Shown here piece by piece: positions 1 to 24,994 of a stretch of 64,000 nt of DNA. Under the pieces are notes generated by a model. It was not told where the DNA came from and did not search any database. It saw only the letters and a list, made by a program, of their open reading frames with translations. Numbering within the stretch: the first letter of the stretch is position 1; each line of letters opens with the position of its first letter. The stretch is from a virus, in IMG/VR virus record IMGVR_UViG_3300032284_001716, positions 1 through 64,000 of that record, one strand, 5' to 3'. Position numbers and translations under genes: made by a program.

Positions 1-870
1 GCACCAACAGCGGCATTTGGACCTATTTGTTCATTACCTGAACTCGAAACCTGGATCACAACTTGGGCTTTTTCAGAAACCATACACTCTAGATCATATA
101 CACACATCATACGAAACATATATTCCAACCCTTCTAAAATTTTCGACGAAATTACTGACATCCCAGAGATCATAGAATGTGCAGGTGATATTAGTAAGTA
201 TTATGATTATTTGATTGCTTATAACAATGCATATGCTGATGGTTCATATCATACATTTATGGGCAGTGATATGACTGAAAATAGCATGTTATATGATATG
301 CATCATAAAGAACACAAGAAGGCTCTTTGGCTTGCATTGATGTCTGTTAACGTACTTGAAGGAGTTAGATTCTATGTCTCGTTTGCGTGCAGTTGGGCTT
401 TCGCAGAAGTTAAAAGAATGGAGGGAAATGCCAAGATCATCAAGCTTATTGCCCGTGACGAGAACCTTCATCTTGCTGGAACACAACAGCTACTCAAGGC
501 GCTTCAGAAAGAAGATGAGGACTTTGCCGCAATTGCTCAAGAAACGAAAGATGAATGCATCCAACTTTTTGTTAGTGCTGTTGATCAAGAGAAAGCTTGG
601 GCGAGTTATCTATTCAGAGATGGGTCGATGGTTGGTTTGAATGAAGCCCTGCTGAACGAATATATAGAATGGATTGCTAATAAGCGTATGACAGCTGTTG
701 GCTTGCCTACGCCTTATAAGGGTGGAAGCAATCCACTACCGTGGACACAAAAGTGGATTTCTGGTTCAGAAGTTCAAGTGGCACCACAAGAAACTGAGAT
801 CACTAGTTATATTAATGGTGGTGTCAAAAAAGACGTTAATGAGAACACATTTAAAGGATTTAGCCTATGA
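1..870 (+). CDS. nrdB: Ribonucleotide reductase class Ia beta subunit (5' truncated by window)
   Basis: Frame 1 is open from base 1 (…WAFSETIHSRSYTHI…); LEGVRFYVSFACS, IARDENLH and C-terminal VAPQETEITSY are R2 motifs. Confidence 0.97.
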   Translation, partial: APTAAFGPICSLPELETWITTWAFSETIHSRSYTHIIRNIYSNPSKIFDEITDIPEIIECAGDISKYYDYLIAYNNAYADGSYHTFMGSDMTENSMLYDMHHKEHKKALWLALMSVNVLEGVRFYVSFACSWAFAEVKRMEGNAKIIKLIARDENLHLAGTQQLLKALQKEDEDFAAIAQETKDECIQLFVSAVDQEKAWASYLFRDGSMVGLNEALLNEYIEWIANKRMTAVGLPTPYKGGSNPLPWTQKWISGSEVQVAPQETEITSYINGGVKKDVNENTFKGFSL

Positions 871-1670
871 AATTATCAACATTAGTAGTTGCACTTCTAG
901 CAACAACAGGATCTGCTTATGCAGCAGATCCTCAAGCAGCCCCTAAGCCAGTTGCAGCATGTGCTGCGATGGTACCATATGGTGCACCATCCTCTAAGGC
1001 AGGTGAACCGGTTATCTGTCGCGCTGGATATATCCTAGAGCACAACAACACGGCCAAGATTCCTGGTTGGGTTGCTTGGACTCTTACACCTGAGCATGTT
1101 ATCAGCTGCCTACCACGTGATGATGCGTTTGCTGCTGACCAGTCGCTTGGTCCTAACTCTGCAAAGCCTACAGATTATGCAGGTTCTGGTTATGATCAGG
1201 GTCATCTTGCTAACAACGCTGACATGTCGTATGATGCAACGGTCGCTCGTGAGTCGTTCATCATGTCAAACATGAGCCCTCAGCTTCCTGGTGTCAATCG
1301 TGGTACATGGAAGAATCTAGAGTCTGCCGAGCGTGCCTGGGTATACTCTAACAAGGCTGCATATACTATCATCGCCGGTAACATCTGGTCTGCCTCTAGC
1401 AAGACTATCGGTGCTGATAAGGTTGTAGTTCCTGATGCACTCTATAAGATTCTTGTGAACAATGCAACCAAGCAATCTATCGCCTTCATCATTCCTAACA
1501 TTGCAGGAACCGATCAGGACTTCACTAAGTATCAGGTGACAGTTGCTGATGTTGAGAAGGCCTCAGGTTATGTGTTTGCTGTTCCTGATGCAAAGACCGC
1601 CAAGAACAAGATTCCAGCTGTTGATCTAAAGACCATTGCAGCTGATAAGAAGAATCAATGTAAGGCTTAA
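867..1670 (+). CDS. DNA/RNA non-specific endonuclease (NucA/EndA-like) with signal peptide
   Basis: YDQGHLA (DRGH-like) motif, SNMSPQ..NRGTW..LE; N-terminal Sec signal MKLSTLVVALLATTGSAYA. Confidence 0.9.
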   Translation: MKLSTLVVALLATTGSAYAADPQAAPKPVAACAAMVPYGAPSSKAGEPVICRAGYILEHNNTAKIPGWVAWTLTPEHVISCLPRDDAFAADQSLGPNSAKPTDYAGSGYDQGHLANNADMSYDATVARESFIMSNMSPQLPGVNRGTWKNLESAERAWVYSNKAAYTIIAGNIWSASSKTIGADKVVVPDALYKILVNNATKQSIAFIIPNIAGTDQDFTKYQVTVADVEKASGYVFAVPDAKTAKNKIPAVDLKTIAADKKNQCKA

Positions 1671-1672
1671 TC

Positions 1673-1825
1673 ATGGGGACCGATTATCTTTGTGAACAGT
1701 GCGATGCAGAGTATCAGGTCATCCATCGAGAGAAAGATCCGGTATCCTTCTGCCCCTTTTGTGGGTGGCAGAAGGATCTAGATGAAGAAACTGAGGAAGA
1801 CGAAGACCTCTGGGACGATGAGTAG
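1673..1825 (+). CDS. Small zinc-ribbon protein, 50 aa (not in ORF track)
   Basis: MGTDYLCEQCDAEY…CPFCGW…acidic tail; CxxC…CPxCG; fills the gap between neighbours exactly. Confidence 0.75.
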   Translation: MGTDYLCEQCDAEYQVIHREKDPVSFCPFCGWQKDLDEETEEDEDLWDDE

Positions 1826-2235
1826 TGTCCTATGAAAATCCGTGGACCTATGAAGGTAACTTAGTAGATGAAGAATTAGTGTACAATCATGTTGGTTTTG
1901 TGTATAATATAACCAACATGACGACAGGTAGACGCTACATTGGTAAGAAGCTCTTCACTAAGTCTAAGACTAGGCAGGTGAAGGGCAAGAAGAAACGTAC
2001 TAGAGTAGCGTCTGACTGGATGGAATACTATGGTTCTAATAAAGAGTTGCAGGCTGATGTTGAGCAACTAGGTATCCACAACTTCAAGAGAGAGATACTT
2101 AGACTATGCAAAACCAAAGGCGAGTGCAACTATTGGGAAGCTCGATACCAGTTCGACTATCGAGTTCTCGAGTCTAACGACTATTATAACTCGTGGATCA
2201 TGGTAAAAGTCCATAAAGCGCATCTGCCCACGTAG
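1825..2235 (+). CDS. GIY-YIG endonuclease (T4 endonuclease II/Seg-like)
   Basis: GFVYNITN…RRYIGKK, YYGS, FKREIL, YYNSWI. Confidence 0.85.
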   Translation: MSYENPWTYEGNLVDEELVYNHVGFVYNITNMTTGRRYIGKKLFTKSKTRQVKGKKKRTRVASDWMEYYGSNKELQADVEQLGIHNFKREILRLCKTKGECNYWEARYQFDYRVLESNDYYNSWIMVKVHKAHLPT

Positions 2236-2303
2236 GCCAACAGGTTAGAGTCAACGGACTTAAAATCCGTAAAGTGTCGGTTCGAATCCGACCGTGGGCA
2301 CCA
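2226..2303 (+). tRNA. tRNA-Leu(UAA), short variable arm
   Basis: Acceptor GCCCACG/CGTGGGC + A-CCA; anticodon arm ACGGA-CTTAAAA-TCCGT; T arm GTCGG-TTCGAAT-CCGAC. Confidence 0.92.
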
Positions 2304-2319
2304 TTAACAGAGAAAGACA

Positions 2320-2793
2320 ATGAGAAAGTTTGATCTTGATGAAGTGGTTGAATTTATCCTCAGTTCTTCGCCTTCCACCTCCATCTATATTGGAGCAGAT
2401 AGTGAACGTTACCGCGGTAGGGATGACAAGTGGTATGCTGACTATACAGTTGCCATTGTTATTCACATGGATTCTTCTAGAGGTTGTCGTGTCTTCGGAA
2501 AGATAGACACAGAACGTGACTTTGATAAGCGCCATGATCGACCAGCGTATCGTCTTATGAACGAGGTCTATCGTGCATCTCAGATGTACCTAGACTTGTT
2601 TGAAGCTATCGGCGATCGCCACTGTGAAGTTCATCTGGACATCAATCCTGATGAGATGCATGGTTCATCATGTGTCATTCAGCAGGCTACCGGCTATATT
2701 CGTGGCATGTGTGGTTTTACTCCTAAGGTAAAGCCAGAAGCTTTTGCTGCTTCTTATGCAGCCGATAGACTGAAGGAAATTCTGCACGCGTAG
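2320..2793 (+). CDS. RNase H-like YkuK (DUF458) family protein
   Basis: IYIGADSE, RLMNEV, EVHLDINPD, KVKPEAFAASYAADR. Confidence 0.85.
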   Translation: MRKFDLDEVVEFILSSSPSTSIYIGADSERYRGRDDKWYADYTVAIVIHMDSSRGCRVFGKIDTERDFDKRHDRPAYRLMNEVYRASQMYLDLFEAIGDRHCEVHLDINPDEMHGSSCVIQQATGYIRGMCGFTPKVKPEAFAASYAADRLKEILHA

Positions 2794-2859
2794 CTTAGCG
2801 TCTAAAGCCGGCCGCTCATAACGGTCTTATCGGGGGTTAGAGTCCCTCCGCGTGCACCA
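2784..2859 (+). tRNA. tRNA with CAU anticodon, most likely Ile2 (lysidine type)
   Basis: Acceptor GCACGCG/CGCGTGC + A-CCA; anticodon arm GGCCG-CTCATAA-CGGTC resembles proteobacterial Ile2; no initiator GGG/CCC stem or 1-72 mismatch. Confidence 0.88.
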
Positions 2860-2880
2860 ATTTTAACAAAGGAGTATATT

Positions 2881-2970
2881 ATGGCACATCCGCATAAAAA
2901 TCGTCCTCGCAAGGGTCGTCGTAAGATTGGCTCTAAGAAGCGGAAGCAGAGGAATAAGAGGAAGAGGTGA
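2881..2970 (+). CDS. 29-aa highly basic peptide MAHPHKNRPRKGRRKIGSKKRKQRNKRKR (not in ORF track)
   Basis: AAGGAG SD 6 nt upstream of ATG; stop overlaps GTG start of next gene (GTGA). Confidence 0.75.
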   Translation: MAHPHKNRPRKGRRKIGSKKRKQRNKRKR

Positions 2971-3326
2971 GACTCTTCCTCGCAGTCATGACCATGGTAT
3001 TCCCATTGTCAGCTACCGCAGCTGATATGAAAAGGGAATACCATGGCATTGCTTCTTGGTACCAGAGTGGGCATAAGACTGCAAGTGGTCAAAAATTCAA
3101 TGCTCATAAGTATTCTGTGGCACACAAGAATCTACCATTCGGTACTATGTTGCGTTTGACTAACATAAAGACTGGTGCCACGATCGACGCGGTCGTCAAC
3201 GATAGAGGGCCGTTTAAGAAGGATCGAGAGCTTGACGTATCAAAGGCTGGTGCAATATCTCTAGGGTTCTTCCATAGTGGTACGGCAAAACTTCTTATTG
3301 AGGTATTGTCTGACCTAAAGAAATAA
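2967..3326 (+). CDS. rlpA: RlpA-family lytic transglycosylase (DPBB domain) with signal peptide
   Basis: GIASWY…TASGQKF…AHKNLPFGT…VNDRGPF…R.LDVS. Confidence 0.92.
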   Translation: MRLFLAVMTMVFPLSATAADMKREYHGIASWYQSGHKTASGQKFNAHKYSVAHKNLPFGTMLRLTNIKTGATIDAVVNDRGPFKKDRELDVSKAGAISLGFFHSGTAKLLIEVLSDLKK

Positions 3327-3338
3327 TTGGAGAATGAT

Positions 3339-4250
3339 ATGTACAAGACACTTTTAACCGCAGGGGTAATGTTTGCCGCGGTCGCGTCAACACCCGCGGC
3401 CGCAAAGCCTTTTACACTGTCTGACCTTTTTTCTAGTCCACAACCAGAGGTTCAGCAACCAGTACAGCAACCGAAGAAGGTTGTTAAGAAGCGTACTAAA
3501 AAGCAAACAAAGCAGGTTAAGGCTCCTGTTAAAGTAGCACCTGAAAATAATGCATTCGTAAAGTGTGATTCATTATTTGGTATTGGTTGTGGCATGGTGG
3601 CCGCAGCACCTACTACTGCAGCTATTACGTATGGTGTTGGTATGTCTGCCCCCTCTACATCTTCAGAGGAGATGACGTCAGCACAGTATTGGGCAGAGGA
3701 AGCTAGACGTAATCAGAAGCAGCAACCTGCTGTTGCTCCTAGACAGTCGATTGCTACAAATCTAAAGACTCGTGAGGAACGTCGCCGCGAGCTAGTTATG
3801 AATTGTAGCTGGTTTACATGTACGCCGGGTTATGTAGAACCGGTGATGGAAGCCAAGAAGTGGGAAGGCAAGACTGCTAAGGGTAATAAGCGCGAGCTTC
3901 AAGCCCTATTCAAAGATGGTAAGGTTCCACCTATTGATCCAGCACGTATCCCATGGTGTGCTGCATTTGCGAATGCCATCCTATCAAGAGCTGGTTTCGA
4001 AACAACAGGCAGTCTACAAGCTAGAAGCTTCCTTCACTGGGGTACAAAGACAAAAGATCCCAAAGAAGGGGATATTGTTGTTCTAGCACGAGGCCACAAT
4101 GGTTGGTCAGGGCATGTTGGATTCTTCCAGGGCTTCGAAGATTTCGAAGGTGTTAAGTATGTTAAGGTACTTGCGGGTAATACGGACAAGGCAGTTCAGG
4201 TCGGCTATTTCCCAGTGAGTAAAGTTCTTGGATATAGAACAGCAGCCTAA
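3339..4250 (+). CDS. Exported TIGR02594/NlpC-P60-like peptidoglycan hydrolase
   Basis: Signal peptide; C-terminal PWCAAF…ARSFLHWG…GDIVV…GHVGF…VLAGN (Cys/His dyad). Confidence 0.85.
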   Translation: MYKTLLTAGVMFAAVASTPAAAKPFTLSDLFSSPQPEVQQPVQQPKKVVKKRTKKQTKQVKAPVKVAPENNAFVKCDSLFGIGCGMVAAAPTTAAITYGVGMSAPSTSSEEMTSAQYWAEEARRNQKQQPAVAPRQSIATNLKTREERRRELVMNCSWFTCTPGYVEPVMEAKKWEGKTAKGNKRELQALFKDGKVPPIDPARIPWCAAFANAILSRAGFETTGSLQARSFLHWGTKTKDPKEGDIVVLARGHNGWSGHVGFFQGFEDFEGVKYVKVLAGNTDKAVQVGYFPVSKVLGYRTAA

Positions 4251-4279
4251 CGATCGATATATAAGTTATAGAAAAATAA

Positions 4280-4311
4280 ACGGGCAGTATGTTATTCTCG
4301 ATACTGCCCGT
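4280..4311 (+). promoter_or_regulatory. 11-bp stem hairpin in intergenic leader
   Basis: ACGGGCAGTAT-N10-ATACTGCCCGT perfect inverted repeat, no U tract. Confidence 0.5.
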
Positions 4312-4372
4312 GATCAAATCTTACTGTTAACAATTGAGAAAAAAGTTTGCTTGTTTATCATGGAGATTTTGA

Positions 4373-4534
4373 ATGGCAGAGGTCGACCTAGTAAAGGTTG
4401 AGCTCGAGTGGTATAAACAAATCCTCGAGCATATCAATAAAGTTCTATCTAATCCGCAAATGACCAATGATGAAAAGGTCAGTTCAGCCGCGTGGCTTGT
4501 CAAACAGTTGAAGAAGAGTGATCGTGATGACTGA
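4373..4534 (+). CDS. Hypothetical protein, 53 aa (not in ORF track)
   Basis: GGAG SD; MAEVDLVKVELEWYKQILEH…; stop overlaps clpP start. Confidence 0.65.
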   Translation: MAEVDLVKVELEWYKQILEHINKVLSNPQMTNDEKVSSAAWLVKQLKKSDRDD

Positions 4535-5087
4535 TAAGAGTGATAAGAAGACTGAGATTCCGAGCATCGATGAACATCACTACTATATGTTTACTAAGGA
4601 GTTTGATGCTGACTCATCGTCTGATGCTATAGAGTTTATCCTAGAACGAAATCTTATGAAGATCAAGCCGAAGATGATGAAGATGATCATTAACTCGCCG
4701 GGTGGTGAGATTGCGGCTGCCTTCGCGCTCATCGATACAATGAAAGGGTCACGCGTGCCCATCTATACGTACGGGCTTGGTGAGATCGCCTCCTGCGGTC
4801 TTATGACGTTTATCGCCGGTGAAAAGGGTCATCGCTACATCACCCGTAATACTGCCATCCTCTCACATCAGTATAGCTGGGGATCCTTTGGTAAGGATCA
4901 TGAGCTCATGGCTCGTGTGAAGGAATTTAACAACACACATGCACGAATCCTCGAGCACTATAAGAAGTGCACAGGACTTTCCGAGAAAGATGTTAAGAAG
5001 TTCCTTCTTCCTCCTGAGGACGTGTGGCTGACGGCTAAAGAAGCTGTTAAGTATGGTATCGCTGACGAAGTGGTGGATTTTTACTGA
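4527..5087 (+). CDS. clpP: ClpP-family protease proteolytic subunit
   Basis: INSPGG, IASCG (Ser), SHQ (His), EDVWLTAKEAVKYGIAD (Asp). Confidence 0.95.
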   Translation: MTDKSDKKTEIPSIDEHHYYMFTKEFDADSSSDAIEFILERNLMKIKPKMMKMIINSPGGEIAAAFALIDTMKGSRVPIYTYGLGEIASCGLMTFIAGEKGHRYITRNTAILSHQYSWGSFGKDHELMARVKEFNNTHARILEHYKKCTGLSEKDVKKFLLPPEDVWLTAKEAVKYGIADEVVDFY

Positions 5088-10046: not shown

Positions 10047-10864
10047 TGAGTATTATCTTTTCTGATTTCGATCAGAGCTCTGAGATGTCGCAAAAGGCTC
10101 TTGAGGCCAAACGTGTTAATGGACCTGAGTACTGGCCTACTATGCGTGAGGTGTTTGCTCATGATGCTGAGACGCTTCCTTTCCCACGTTTTCGTATGTG
10201 GGCATCTTGTTGGAATGTTCCACTAATCACTACTGGACGTGTTGCTCGATTCCTTGGTGCTGCATTTGATGCAGCCTATAAGGATCCTGATATTAGCTAT
10301 GCGTTGACTGAGAACTGGGTCGGTGTGCCTGAAGGCATGGAACAGAACTTTAAGGTCGCCGATGATTTTGACACTAGCATGCAGCGAGTACAGGATGTTG
10401 CACATATTGTTATCTGTGGTTTCTCTCCTGAAGAGATCCGTAATTGCAAGAGCATTGTTGAGATTGGTGGTGGTTATGGTGATATGTGTTCTGTTATCCA
10501 TGATCTAGGATTCAAGGGTAAGTACACGATCTATGACTTTCCTGAAGTTCAGAAGATTCAGAACTATTATCTGACTTCTCAGGGTATCAATGCTAACTTT
10601 GTATCTGATCCAAAGGACCTAGAACCTGCTGAACTTGTTATTGCAACATGGTCACTCAGTGAGATTCCGATCGAGTTCCGTGACACTATCATGGAGAAGA
10701 TCGTCAGCTCTGATAAATGGTTGGTAATGTATCAACAGAAGATCTTTGGCACTATCGATAATTCTGAGTACTTCAAGAAGTGGTTTGCCGATCGCAATCC
10801 TGTCTTTATGAAGCATAATGTTACCGAAGCCGATGGTGATAACACTTATATGGTGATCAAATGA
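10046..10864 (+). CDS. Putative sugar O-methyltransferase
   Basis: SAM motif VEIGGGYG, YDFPEV, ATWSLSEIP. Confidence 0.75.
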   Translation: MSIIFSDFDQSSEMSQKALEAKRVNGPEYWPTMREVFAHDAETLPFPRFRMWASCWNVPLITTGRVARFLGAAFDAAYKDPDISYALTENWVGVPEGMEQNFKVADDFDTSMQRVQDVAHIVICGFSPEEIRNCKSIVEIGGGYGDMCSVIHDLGFKGKYTIYDFPEVQKIQNYYLTSQGINANFVSDPKDLEPAELVIATWSLSEIPIEFRDTIMEKIVSSDKWLVMYQQKIFGTIDNSEYFKKWFADRNPVFMKHNVTEADGDNTYMVIK

Positions 10865-11283
10865 GGCCACAGCTTCCACTAAGAGTCGGGTTTACATGTA
10901 GCGCATTTGACTTGCTACATCCGGGTCATATTGAGATGTTGAATGAGTGTAAGACTCAAGTTGACTGGTTGATTGTTGGTTTGCACTCTGATCCAACGAT
11001 TGATAGGCCTGATACGAAGAACAAGCCTATTCAGTCCTTGTATGAACGATTCGTTCAACTTCGTGCTGTTAAGTTTGTTGACGAGATTATTCCATATGAG
11101 TCAGAGTACGACCTTATCAACATCCTTGGTATTGAACCGATCACGCACCGATTTGTAGGCGTTGAGTACAAAGATACATATGTTGTTGGACAAGACATCT
11201 GCGAGAAGCGCGGAATCAATATTGTCTACAATTCCCGTGATCATCAATATAGCTCAACAGAGCTGAGGAGCCGTTTGAAATGA
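10861..11283 (+). CDS. HIGH-class sugar-phosphate nucleotidyltransferase (TagD/HldE C-terminal-like)
   Basis: AFDLLHPGH, LIVGL, KPIQSLYER, VDEII, YSSTELR. Confidence 0.9.
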   Translation: MRPQLPLRVGFTCSAFDLLHPGHIEMLNECKTQVDWLIVGLHSDPTIDRPDTKNKPIQSLYERFVQLRAVKFVDEIIPYESEYDLINILGIEPITHRFVGVEYKDTYVVGQDICEKRGINIVYNSRDHQYSSTELRSRLK

Positions 11284-12403: not shown

Positions 12404-13127
12404 ACTATACGCCGATGGCGCTGATTGGAATGGCATCGTAGATGCTGCTAATGACCCAGATATTAAGGGTTTTACTACTAACCCAACTCTGATGCGTCAG
12501 GCTGGTGTGACTAACTATACTGACTTCTCTACGTTCGCTATCTCTTATCTTGCTAAAAATCGTCCTGACACAACGCTGAGCCTCGAGGTGTTTGCTGATA
12601 CTCCTTCGGAGATTATTCGTCAGGCACGAAAGATCAATGATTGGGGTGATGCAGCCGGTTATCCTGTCTATGTGAAGATTCCTGTTATGTACACTAATGG
12701 TGATTCAACAGGAGATCTTATCAAGCAGTTGAGTCATGAAGGTATCAAGCTGAATGTGACGGCTGTTTTCACTGAGCAACAGACTAGCGAGATTATAGAC
12801 AATCTGTTTATCGATACACCTAGCATTATCTCTATCTTTGCCGGCCGTATCGCTGATGCTGGTCAGGATCCAGAATCGATTGTTACCCGCTGTACGATGT
12901 TGTATGATGATGTTCGTGAGCTTGGTGGTAAGACTGAGTTCCTCTGGGCTTCCTCACGTGAGGCATATAATATTCATCACGCTGCGTGGTCTGGTTGTGA
13001 CATCATCACTATGACACCTGACTTGATTAAGAAGGTAAAAGCCTTCGGCAAGGATCTTACACAGTTCTCACGTGAGACTTGCCAAATGTTCTATAATGAT
13101 GCAGTGAAGAGTGGATTTGAACTATGA
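12396..13127 (+). CDS. talC: Transaldolase (short TalC/FSA type)
   Basis: GFTTNPTL, VYVKIP (Schiff-base Lys), NVTAVF, FAGRIAD, LWASSRE. Confidence 0.92.
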   Translation: MIKLYADGADWNGIVDAANDPDIKGFTTNPTLMRQAGVTNYTDFSTFAISYLAKNRPDTTLSLEVFADTPSEIIRQARKINDWGDAAGYPVYVKIPVMYTNGDSTGDLIKQLSHEGIKLNVTAVFTEQQTSEIIDNLFIDTPSIISIFAGRIADAGQDPESIVTRCTMLYDDVRELGGKTEFLWASSREAYNIHHAAWSGCDIITMTPDLIKKVKAFGKDLTQFSRETCQMFYNDAVKSGFEL

Positions 13128-14134
13128 GTTTTGAAGAGAATGAAGTTTCCATCAATGCAAACGGTGGTACAGAGATCGCCAAGCGTAAGCTAGCACAGAT
13201 TATCGATCCTGAACTACTTGATAACTTCCAGATTGTTAGCTCACGTGTGCGTGAGCTTGATCCTACAAAGATTCGTGTGTTCTGGGCCCATGACCTTGCT
13301 GAGGATCCTGAGTCAAAGAAGTTTCAAGATCGAAGCTTTCAATCAAGCTGGCACAAGTATGTGTTTATCTCTGATTGGCAGTATCAGCGTTATCAGCTAG
13401 TGCATGGTATTCCATACAATGCTAAATCGGCAGTGTTGGAGTCTGGTATTGAGCCGGCACTTGATGATGTGCTTGAGATGAAGAAGAGTGAAGATGGTAA
13501 GATCCATATCGTCTACACATCTACACCTCAACGTGGACTTGAGATTCTTCTTCCTGTATTTGAGAAGCTGACAGAACTGCATCCAGATATTCATCTTGAC
13601 GTGTTCTCATCGTTTAAGATCTATGGATGGGATGATGCTGATAAGCAGTTTGAACCTCTCTATGATCGTATTCGCAACAACCCTAATATGACATATCATG
13701 GGTTCGTTCCTAATGCAGACTTGAAGGCGCATCTCAATAAGTCACATATCTTCGCCTATCCTTCTATCTGGCTTGAGACATCATGCCGTGCAATGCTTGA
13801 AGCTATGTCGGCTGGACTAGTGTGTGTTCATCCTAACTTTGGCGCACTTGCTGAAACATCCGGTGGTTTGAACATCATGTATCAGGGCGACTTTGAAGAT
13901 AAGAACGCACATGCCAATATCTTCATCAACCATCTAAACTCTGCTATCAACTTCGTTCGTAATAATGATCACGGTCCGATGGCTAAGTTCAATAAGGCTT
14001 ATGTCGATGCACGATTTAACATCGAACGTGTTAAGAACCAATGGGAGCTTATGCTGCGCGGGCTACTAAGAGAATATCCTACTGTTGAGTCACGTGCAAT
14101 CAAGAAGCTTCCCGATATGGTTTACAGGACATGA
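13124..14134 (+). CDS. Glycosyltransferase (GT-B, GT4-like)
   Basis: GGTE, YTSTPQRGL, AYPSIWLETSCRAMLEAMSAG (Ex7E). Confidence 0.9.
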   Translation: MSFEENEVSINANGGTEIAKRKLAQIIDPELLDNFQIVSSRVRELDPTKIRVFWAHDLAEDPESKKFQDRSFQSSWHKYVFISDWQYQRYQLVHGIPYNAKSAVLESGIEPALDDVLEMKKSEDGKIHIVYTSTPQRGLEILLPVFEKLTELHPDIHLDVFSSFKIYGWDDADKQFEPLYDRIRNNPNMTYHGFVPNADLKAHLNKSHIFAYPSIWLETSCRAMLEAMSAGLVCVHPNFGALAETSGGLNIMYQGDFEDKNAHANIFINHLNSAINFVRNNDHGPMAKFNKAYVDARFNIERVKNQWELMLRGLLREYPTVESRAIKKLPDMVYRT

Positions 14135-15123
14135 TTGTAACAAGGACACCGTTACGAGTTAGTTTCTTCAGTGGCGGCAGCGACATGCCTAACTTCTTCG
14201 AGAAGGAGAAAGGCGCTGCGCTGTCTGTCACTATCGACAAGTACATCTACGTTATGGTGCATAAGACTCCTCACCTAGGCGTGAAGATCATGTATGACAC
14301 CATTGAGGAATTTCCTGATGTCGAACAGATGCAGCACGCCATCACACGTGAGAGCTTGAAGTTCTATGACATTGATAGAGAGATCACAATTGCATCTATC
14401 GCTGACATTCTAGCTAAGGGTTCTGGCTTGGGTTCATCATCAGCGTTCACTATTGGTTTGGTGAATGCTCTTGCAAACCCAGATCAACACGGCAGTCAGG
14501 TATCACGTGAGTATCTTGCACAGCAAGCATATCACATTGAGCGTGATTTGTGTAAATATCCTGTAGGTAAGCAGGACCAGTATGCATCAGCATATGGTGG
14601 TATGAATCTATTCGAGTTCCATACTGATGGTACGGTTGGTATCCAATCTCTAGCTTACAAGCGTGAGATGTGGAGTAAGCTAGAAGATAGACTTCTCTTA
14701 GTCTACTCTGGCAAGGGCCGTAATGCTAACTCGATTCTACAGAAGCAGGCTGCAGCTATGGATGATAGTGCTAAGTTTGCTCTAGTGCGCCAATCACGTG
14801 ACAAGGCATACATCGGTGCTAAGTTCATTGAGGATGGAAGACTAGACGACTTCGGTTCACTTCTCCATGATGCATGGATGGACAAGAAGGCAGTTGAAAC
14901 TTCGATTACGAATGAGTACTTCGACGAAATATATACTCGTGCTCTTACTGCAGGAGCTCTGGGAGGTAAGCTTCTTGGTGCTGGCGGCGGTGGCTTTTTT
15001 CTTTTCTACGTAGATCCATCTAAGAGAGCAGCCGTTATCAACTCGATTACTAGAGAGACACCATGCAAAGTCTATGACTTCAAGTTTGCCTTGAATGGCA
15101 GCCGCGTGTCGAGCTACAGTTAA
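14131..15123 (+). CDS. hddA: D-glycero-alpha-D-manno-heptose-7-phosphate kinase (GHMP)
   Basis: TPLRVSFFSGGSD, GSGLGSSSA, GKQDQYA, GKLLGAGGGGF. Confidence 0.88.
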   Translation: MIVTRTPLRVSFFSGGSDMPNFFEKEKGAALSVTIDKYIYVMVHKTPHLGVKIMYDTIEEFPDVEQMQHAITRESLKFYDIDREITIASIADILAKGSGLGSSSAFTIGLVNALANPDQHGSQVSREYLAQQAYHIERDLCKYPVGKQDQYASAYGGMNLFEFHTDGTVGIQSLAYKREMWSKLEDRLLLVYSGKGRNANSILQKQAAAMDDSAKFALVRQSRDKAYIGAKFIEDGRLDDFGSLLHDAWMDKKAVETSITNEYFDEIYTRALTAGALGGKLLGAGGGGFFLFYVDPSKRAAVINSITRETPCKVYDFKFALNGSRVSSYS

Positions 15124-24349: not shown

Positions 24350-24610
24350 ATGTTCATTGAAATCGACGAAGAGCTTATCGACCGTATCATCAAGCAGCGC
24401 CTCGAGGAGGACTGGGTCCATGCTAACAAGGAAATCATGATCCTTGAGAGTGAGGATCGCCGCGGTGAACTCAAGCCTTATCAGCGTGAGGATCTTGAGA
24501 TGTACCGTAGGTTGATTCCTGCAATGCGCGTCATGGCAACATGGCACTTCACAAAGTTTGAGCAGGAAGAAATCTTTGGTGTACAAGACGATGACGATGT
24601 GATAGAATAA
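24350..24610 (+). CDS. Hypothetical protein
   Basis: AAGGGA SD, 86 aa. Confidence 0.65.
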   Translation: MFIEIDEELIDRIIKQRLEEDWVHANKEIMILESEDRRGELKPYQREDLEMYRRLIPAMRVMATWHFTKFEQEEIFGVQDDDDVIE

Positions 24611-24616
24611 ATACAG

Positions 24617-24908
24617 TTGCAAAGGTTGTTGATGCGTAAGGAATAGACGTTCTGGACCCGGGGGCGGTACCCGGCGCCTCCACCATAGATACATCGACAC
24701 GGACTACATGGGTAAACCTTATGAATGTAAGTAAGTCCCAACCGAAACACAGCGGTGTATCTTTGATGGGGGCGAAATAGGATCGACAGGATGCAGTAAA
24801 GGTACGAGTAGACCAATGCAAACGTTAGATGCAAACGATAATGCACCTCTAGTTATGGCACTTGCTGCCTAACATGCGTCCGGGGGAACGTGGAAACAGA
24901 ATCCCCCA
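24617..24908 (+). ncRNA. ssrA: Circularly permuted (two-piece) tmRNA, alphaproteobacterial type; tag (A)ANDNAPLVMALAA
   Basis: Acceptor piece ends CCGGG-GGCGGTA-CCCGG-CGCCTCC-A-CCA (24685); 82-nt intervening segment; coding piece starts GGGGGCG (24768) giving G3-U70; tag frame 24831-24872; 3' hairpin. Outer ends approximate. Confidence 0.93.
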
Positions 24909-24917
24909 TCTATCTAC

Positions 24918-24994
24918 GGTCACTTAGCTCAGCTGGATAGAGCATCAGACTTCTAATCTGAGGGTCGATGGTTCGAGTCCATCAGTGATCGCCA
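24918..24994 (+). tRNA. tRNA-Arg(UCU)
   Basis: Acceptor GGTCACT/AGTGATC + G-CCA; TCAGA-CTTCTAA-TCTGA; GATGG-TTCGAGT-CCATC. Confidence 0.95.

Follow-up and report, generated by a model that had tools for sequence, protein, structure and literature searches.

Two nuclease-type genes of an uncultured lake phage stop inside tRNA genes, probably through tight gene packing

Two neighbouring nuclease-type genes of a phage take their stop codons from within the tRNA genes that follow them, which raises the question of whether tRNA maturation is used to control the two proteins or whether the genes and tRNAs have simply been packed together. The window, that is, the whole 64,000-nt stretch analyzed here, corresponds to the initial 64 kb of an IMG/VR virus contig of 99.5 kb (IMGVR_UViG_3300032284_001716). 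Positions 1–3400 are occupied by densely packed genes, all in the same orientation, with the following features.

Up to 870, + strand: nrdB
867–1670, + strand: gene for a secreted non-specific endonuclease
1673–1825, + strand: zinc-ribbon ORF, 50 aa
1825–2235, + strand: GIY-YIG gene, 136 aa, domain only (PF19835 SegE_GIY-YIG, 9e-38)
2226–2303, + strand: tRNA-Leu(UAA) (ARAGORN and Rfam, 61.2 bits)
2226–2235, + strand: first overlap, 10 nt; the G of CTG (Leu134), CCC, ACG and TAG are tRNA-Leu positions 1–10
2320–2793, + strand: RNaseH-like/DUF458 (YkuK family) gene, 157 aa (PF04308, 8e-17; phrog_11311, 2e-56)
2784–2859, + strand: tRNA-Met(CAU), elongator-like (G1-C72) (ARAGORN and Rfam, 54.7 bits)
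2784–2793, + strand: second overlap, 10 nt; the G of CTG (Leu155), CAC, GCG and TAG are tRNA-Met positions 1–10
After tRNA-Met, + strand: a 29-aa basic ORF, then an RlpA-like gene

Direct reading of the sequence places the GIY-YIG stop (TAG, 2233–2235) at positions 8–10 of tRNA-Leu and the RNaseH-like stop (TAG, 2791–2793) at positions 8–10 of tRNA-Met, and TCT/G is found at both junctions (2223–2226 and 2781–2784). The final two codons and the stop of the GIY-YIG gene lie within tRNA-Leu, and its GTG start shares 1 nt with the stop of the upstream zinc-ribbon ORF. The RNaseH-like gene starts 16 nt past tRNA-Leu and overlaps tRNA-Met at its 3' end, so that it is bracketed by two tRNAs. Both tRNAs form canonical cloverleaves with an encoded CCA (Rfam cut-off, 29 bits), and IMG/VR holds 544 relatives of the GIY-YIG protein and 127 of the RNaseH-like protein. 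In a separate study, two lake metagenomes yielded contigs that cover positions 1600–3400 at ~96% identity, with one indel after 2860 (base differences listed to 2697). A search for RNA runs covering the stretch gave none. An artefact, in which miscalled tRNAs or ORFs or a mis-assembly would mimic the overlaps, draws on the metagenomic origin and nothing else, and it can be set aside as next to impossible because two programs give both tRNAs high scores, both ORFs match their families strongly right to their ends, the structure is found in the independent contigs of the other study and the GIY-YIG junction is common to many relatives. Both overlaps are genuine, and the anatomy given by the first-pass annotation (two nuclease-type genes stopping on TAG at tRNA positions 8–10, with 10-nt overlaps and TCT/G junctions) was confirmed by the sequence, ARAGORN, Rfam and Pfam.

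The GIY-YIG protein covers positions 1–123 of the 123-position PF19835 profile, the domain spanning residues 7–125 of 136. Homologues are encoded in all five near-complete relatives (G001–G005), so the gene has the distribution of a core gene rather than that of a mobile homing endonuclease. Assignment as a Seg-type homing endonuclease, considered for its GIY-YIG catalytic domain, was rejected because the added DNA-binding domain and the patchy distribution of such enzymes are missing. The label "NAD synthetase" given to this family as PHROG 447 is apparently a mis-annotation. The RNaseH-like protein, a putative nuclease, matches PF04308 with 62 bits against a cut-off of 25 over profile positions 5–143 of 145, and isolate proteins match it at no more than 53% identity. 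A PDB sequence search returned no match for either protein, and in a blastn search against the phage collection the tRNAs alone were matched, with no close annotated isolate. A DUF458/RNaseH-like gene also lies within the tRNA clusters of two distant isolates, Rhodobacter phage RcXuper (2498–2983), where it adjoins peptidyl-tRNA hydrolase, and Stenotrophomonas phage DLP_6 (2492–2974); this location may point to a function in the metabolism or processing of tRNAs.

How surprising two such stops are depends on the tRNAs themselves. TAG occupies positions 8–10 in about 19 of the 31 tRNAs of the closest complete relative (G001, 167.8 kb). Because TAG is so common there, an ORF that enters a tRNA in the matching frame (1 in 3) usually stops at this point, and two overlaps in one window are not improbable once genes abut tRNAs. 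The notable point is that genes abut tRNAs at all, rather than where they stop.

For comparison, 160 related IMG/VR loci were retrieved, and the stops and tRNAs were located in each. The 10-nt overlap of the RNaseH-like gene is present in none of its 80 relatives, the window alone having it, and the exact 18-mer of the RNaseH-like/tRNA-Met junction was found in no other IMG/VR contig. The commonest junction among these relatives is TAA followed by 6–8 nt and tRNA-Met; others show a gap of 0–1 nt, a 1-nt overlap (TA/G) or an overlap of 6 nt, in this case with tRNA-Phe, or have no tRNA in the vicinity. Where a gap of 0–8 nt is left, the stop is TAA or TAG. In one relative (L014), whose tRNA-Met has the same acceptor stem, the RNaseH-like stop lies 7 nt upstream of the tRNA, and the window is ~20 nt shorter. 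The GIY-YIG gene is linked to tRNA-Leu(UAA) in 45 distinct loci, with an overlap in 15 and a gap in 30. Fourteen of the 15 overlaps are of the 10-nt type, at protein identities from 97% down to 66%, and the remaining one (L022) is 18 nt long; in the gap loci, the stop precedes tRNA-Leu by 5–122 nt, with a mode of 17 nt. On the GIY-YIG tree, the 10-nt state requires from two changes, forced by well-supported branches, to five, that is, two to five lineages. In one lineage (L098–L100), the tRNA reads U8-G9-A10, and the GIY-YIG stop is accordingly TGA, still at positions 8–10. Protein length is kept at both junctions, where the C-termini read ...EILHA in the window versus ...EILAA in relatives for the RNaseH-like protein, and ...HLPT versus ...HIPK for the GIY-YIG protein. 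Conservation of the overlap in relatives, which the first-pass annotation had named as a check, was thus borne out at a third of the GIY-YIG/tRNA-Leu loci and at no RNaseH-like/tRNA-Met locus; by the same counts, the removal of the stop is not conserved among homologues in the manner of arfA-like programmed non-stop messages.

Overlaps of a single nucleotide, where tRNA position +1 is the G of TAG, recur from the GIY-YIG gene to tRNA-Ser (L108, L110–L113 and L115) and from the RNaseH-like gene to tRNA-Met (L024, L037, L122 and L136–L138). RNase P cleavage at these sites would leave a message ending in UA-3', comparable to the incomplete stop codons of mitochondria; in a setting of this kind, stop-codon completion by polyadenylation is not known. 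The tRNA-Leu(UAA) of the window has a class I shape with a 5-nt variable loop, a kind that is 76–78 nt long, and some relatives carry at the same locus a tRNA-Leu(UAA) of 82–83 nt with TGG at positions 8–10, so that two kinds of leucine tRNA occupy one locus across the group. The tRNA-Met of the window has a D loop without GG and an A instead of C at T-loop position 56, and its counterpart in the closest relative (L014, 3482–3557) has G19 and C56; the elbow pair looks to have undergone a compensatory change from G19-C56 to U19-A56.

The overlaps are not specific to nucleases. In G001 (also L170), three genes of other families end within tRNAs.

10243–11190 of G001: radical SAM gene, 315 aa, ending at positions 8–10 of tRNA-Gln (10-nt overlap)
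12578–13279 of G001: GATase/BPL_N-like gene, 233 aa, ending 15 nt into tRNA-Glu
14614–15099 of G001: 2OG-Fe(II) oxygenase gene, 161 aa, ending 15 nt into tRNA-Gly

Further loci have 10-nt overlaps at tRNA-His, tRNA-Ala and tRNA-Ile and overlaps of 1 or 6 nt at several tRNAs. In a set of 171 distinct junctions preceded by a long ORF, the overlap is 10 nt in 23, 1 nt in 10 and 6 nt in 4, and the others are mostly gaps of 0–17 nt; overlaps make up about a quarter of ORF-to-tRNA junctions in the phage group.

Tight gene packing without a dedicated regulatory role is the likely explanation of both junctions, and this simpler alternative of the first-pass annotation, compaction exploiting the conserved TAG, is the reading favoured by the relatives and by the overlaps at non-nuclease genes. 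The overlaps would be the end state of packing in a co-oriented early block running from nrdB through tRNA-Met. Short deletions upstream of tRNA-Leu (~37 nt) and of tRNA-Met (~20 nt), as judged from the nearest gap relatives, may have removed the spacers together with the last codons, and GCC and GC microhomology is present at the inferred deletion ends. In each tRNA, the 5' side of the acceptor stem would now code for the two C-terminal residues, while TAG would come from the near-universal U8-A9-G10, so that protein length is unchanged. A transcript that carries a full ORF and the tRNA could be either translated or cleaved by RNase P, never both at once. The cleaved message would end 2 nt into the codon for Leu134 or Leu155 and lack a stop, and would therefore be cleared by host rescue (tmRNA-SmpB, possibly with the phage tmRNA). 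Such stop loss probably lowers the yield of both proteins somewhat, plausibly as a side effect; the comparative data gave no sign that it is selected or specific to nucleases. One observation counts against pure packing: the persistence of the GIY-YIG overlap down to 66% identity and the TGA variant are compatible with selection for a stop at this place and hence with an arrangement that matters.

Packing would also have affected transcription. In the window, no space for a promoter or terminator is left at either gene/tRNA junction, and no terminator-like site was found on the + strand of positions 1–4000. In gap relatives, a near-consensus sigma70-type promoter (TTGAC[TA], 17 nt, TATAAT or a near variant) directly precedes tRNA-Leu and overlaps the 3' end of the GIY-YIG gene, its −35 box coinciding with the His-Leu-Thr/Pro codons of the C-terminus and its −10 box ending 8–13 nt upstream of tRNA position +1; in the 17-nt gap class, the GIY-YIG stop falls in the promoter spacer. 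With at least 10 of 12 matches and a −10 box ending 8–13 nt before tRNA +1 as the criterion, this junction promoter was found in 19 of 30 gap loci and in 0 of 15 overlap loci. Conversely, a promoter-like site 55–83 nt into the GIY-YIG gene was found in 12 of 15 overlap loci versus 0 of 30 gap loci. In the window, it is the following site.

1880–1908, + strand: GIY-internal promoter-like site (TGTACA, 17 nt, TATAAT), GIY-YIG codons 19–28

The −10 box of this internal site is formed by the Tyr-Asn codons of the GFVYN motif, and transcription is predicted to start near 1915. The pattern TGTAC(17–19 nt)TATRAT occurs at nine sites in the window, all on the + strand, versus 0.35 expected.

1880, 7420, 15132, 19478, 19752, 20022, 21188, 21525 and 29098, + strand: TGTAC-type sites

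A further site, with TAGAAT as the −10 box, lies at 24580, upstream of the tmRNA. G001 has 22 TGTAC-type sites in the forward and one in the reverse direction and no TTGAC-type site, and TTGAC-type sites are present in G006–G009. In relatives whose internal site reads TTGAC[AG], further sites of the TTGAC type occur on the coding strand. The −35 box of the internal site thus tracks the consensus of its own lineage (TGTACA here, TTGACA in others) even though amino acid changes are needed for this, which speaks for a working promoter. The −35 consensus itself differs between the lineage of the window (TGTACA) and its sister lineages (TTGACA); the switch might be due to another host sigma factor or to a factor of the phage. 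TTGAC-type sites are not enriched in the window, where the TGTAC pattern alone is informative; a generic sigma70 scan of positions 1–5000 gave 9 sites versus 9.1 in shuffles and is uninformative by itself because its count equals that of the shuffles. An extended −10 box spanning the RNaseH-like stop before tRNA-Met was also tried in relatives and dropped, as it fits some loci (e.g., CATAAT in L032) and not others.

The promoter of tRNA-Leu in overlap lineages therefore probably sits inside the GIY-YIG gene, judging from these motifs, and the site at 1880–1908 probably supplies tRNA-Leu, the RNaseH-like gene and tRNA-Met. Under packing, the junction promoter of tRNA-Leu would have been lost, with the internal site serving in its place. 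The raw counts of overlap against internal site were 11, 2, 3 and 62, but they represent only two to three phylogenetically independent contrasts, so that no significance is possible and shared ancestry could explain much of the link. A start near 1915 would yield a pre-tRNA-Leu with a ~310-nt leader without the GIY-YIG start codon; many tRNA transcripts would then lack a translatable GIY-YIG message. What is new here is the evidence for a tRNA-Leu promoter located either at the junction or within the upstream gene.

The first-pass annotation had proposed that tRNA maturation strips the stop codon from both nuclease messages and so couples them to tagging and degradation of the nucleases. As adaptive dosage control, this would mean that tmRNA rescues the stalled ribosomes and that the tagged proteins are degraded, limiting two potentially toxic enzymes. 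Its geometric premises hold: each gene and its tRNA have the same orientation, and an RNase P cut at +1 would fall 7 nt before each stop. Fifteen distinct loci retain the GIY-YIG overlap, at identities as low as 66% and, the 18-nt case apart, always with the stop at tRNA positions 8–10. A similar idea has been published (PMC2330249) for segB of T4 and the homing endonucleases of T5, and both a tmRNA and ClpP are encoded by the phage, the former as follows.

24544–24910, + strand: phage tmRNA of the permuted, two-piece alphaproteobacterial (alpha) type, tag ANDNAPLVMALAA (Rfam)

Both components would be compatible with a role in rescue or tagging. A device dedicated to removing the nucleases is nevertheless unlikely, and it does not stand up to most of the checks set out in the first-pass annotation, because the overlap of the RNaseH-like gene is private to the window, two thirds of the GIY-YIG loci stop before the tRNA, the radical SAM, oxygenase and GATase-like genes overlap tRNAs likewise, and tRNA-Leu probably has a separate promoter within the GIY-YIG gene. 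Nor does the presence of tmRNA track the overlap. An alpha-type tmRNA is found in five of five near-complete relatives, whether their GIY-YIG junction is overlapping, gapped or without a tRNA; the tmRNA is a group-wide gene that is not tied to the overlaps. ARAGORN calls the tmRNA at 24593–24963, overlapping tRNA-Arg(UCU), and Rfam places the two at 24544–24910 and 24918–24991; by the Rfam boundaries, tRNA-Arg(UCU) begins 7 nt after the tmRNA, and the same pair is present in G001.

A broader role for the tRNAs can be envisaged, in which they punctuate messages throughout the group, so that their excision frees the messages and routinely strips stops, and the tmRNA and ClpP of the group clear or exploit the resulting non-stop load. 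Many gene/tRNA pairs show overlaps of 1, 6, 10, 15 or 18 nt, the RNaseH-like gene sits between two tRNAs, and the occurrence of the tmRNA in all five near-complete relatives and of ClpP in the window would fit as well. Such punctuation is nonetheless quite unlikely, since the stop precedes the tRNA at most junctions and SmpB was found neither in the contig of the window nor in the five near-complete relatives; moreover, phage tmRNAs are also found in phages without such overlaps. Very unlikely, in turn, is a trans-translation timer run by the phage, in which tRNA excision would routinely strip the stops of early messages (those of nucleases and other enzymes) and the phage tmRNA, with host SmpB and phage ClpP, would be recruited to tag and remove the early proteins in step with tRNA processing.

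Genes that end in tRNAs are known from several other systems, with which the packed junctions of the window can be compared. In the T5 record (NC_005859), the annotated ends of hegD, hegC, T5.069 and T5.057 lie 23, 14, 24 and 6 nt inside the next tRNA. As in the window, same-strand genes that include two homing-type nucleases end in tRNAs, within a tRNA cluster containing small ORFs and nucleases. In contrast to the window, T5 is an unrelated phage, its overlap lengths differ and do not place the stops at positions 8–10, its nucleases are HNH rather than GIY-YIG enzymes, and no pattern of promoter relocation such as that of the window's group has been described. For T4 segB, processing of tRNA-Arg was proposed to cut the message at the stop codon and thereby lower SegB expression (Brok-Volchanskaya et al. 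2008, PMC2330249), and the same proposal is said there to exist for the T5 endonucleases. The first-pass annotation voices the same idea, and segB, which belongs to the T4 tRNA cluster, is likewise a GIY-YIG gene directly upstream of a tRNA; however, its TAA stop falls 5 nt short of the mature tRNA (T4 record) and not inside it. Furthermore, SegB, at 221 aa, includes a DNA-binding part and displays homing, whereas the 136-aa protein of the window is limited to the catalytic domain and has homologues in all five near-complete relatives.

In bacteria, 379 candidate same-orientation overlaps of a CDS with a tRNA or tmRNA were collected as sources of non-stop messages, including the smpB/ssrA overlap in Carsonella and representing few evolutionary events (Hudson, Lau and Williams 2014, PMC4131195). 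Once the overlapping tRNA or tmRNA matures, the message should be left without a stop, there as in the window, which has the same ingredients, namely genuine tRNAs and genuine same-strand, domain-bearing genes whose stop lies within the mature tRNA. The frequencies differ, as the overlap is very rare in bacteria (~1 in 15,000 mRNAs; PMC4131195) and, as counted above, common in the phage group. In animal mitochondria, messages set off by tRNAs are freed by RNase P and 3' processing in tRNA punctuation (Ojala, Montoya and Attardi 1981, as outlined in the review PMC4394434). Such punctuation would be the functional analogue of the phage case, where the RNaseH-like gene lies between two tRNAs and the TA/G junctions of relatives recall incomplete stop codons; unlike mitochondria, the phages have frequent promoters and a full stop codon at most junctions.

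In the literature searched, nothing specific was found on CDS/tRNA stop overlaps or tRNA punctuation in phages, a paper on jakobid mitochondria included, nor was a measurement of the cost in protein yield, an idea that goes back to the T4 segB work. As a by-product, closely related phages provide a natural series for one gene/tRNA pair, in which the stop precedes the tRNA, touches its edge or falls within it, and the tRNA promoter lies at the junction or in the upstream gene. Such a series would allow the protein-yield cost of an intra-tRNA stop to be measured, together with the competition between translation and RNase P on one RNA. The finding argues against reading a dedicated nuclease-control device into overlaps of this kind, and it extends the known cases of genes ending in tRNAs, which comprise T5, the T4 proposal and the rare bacterial examples, by an uncultured group of T4-like lake phages.
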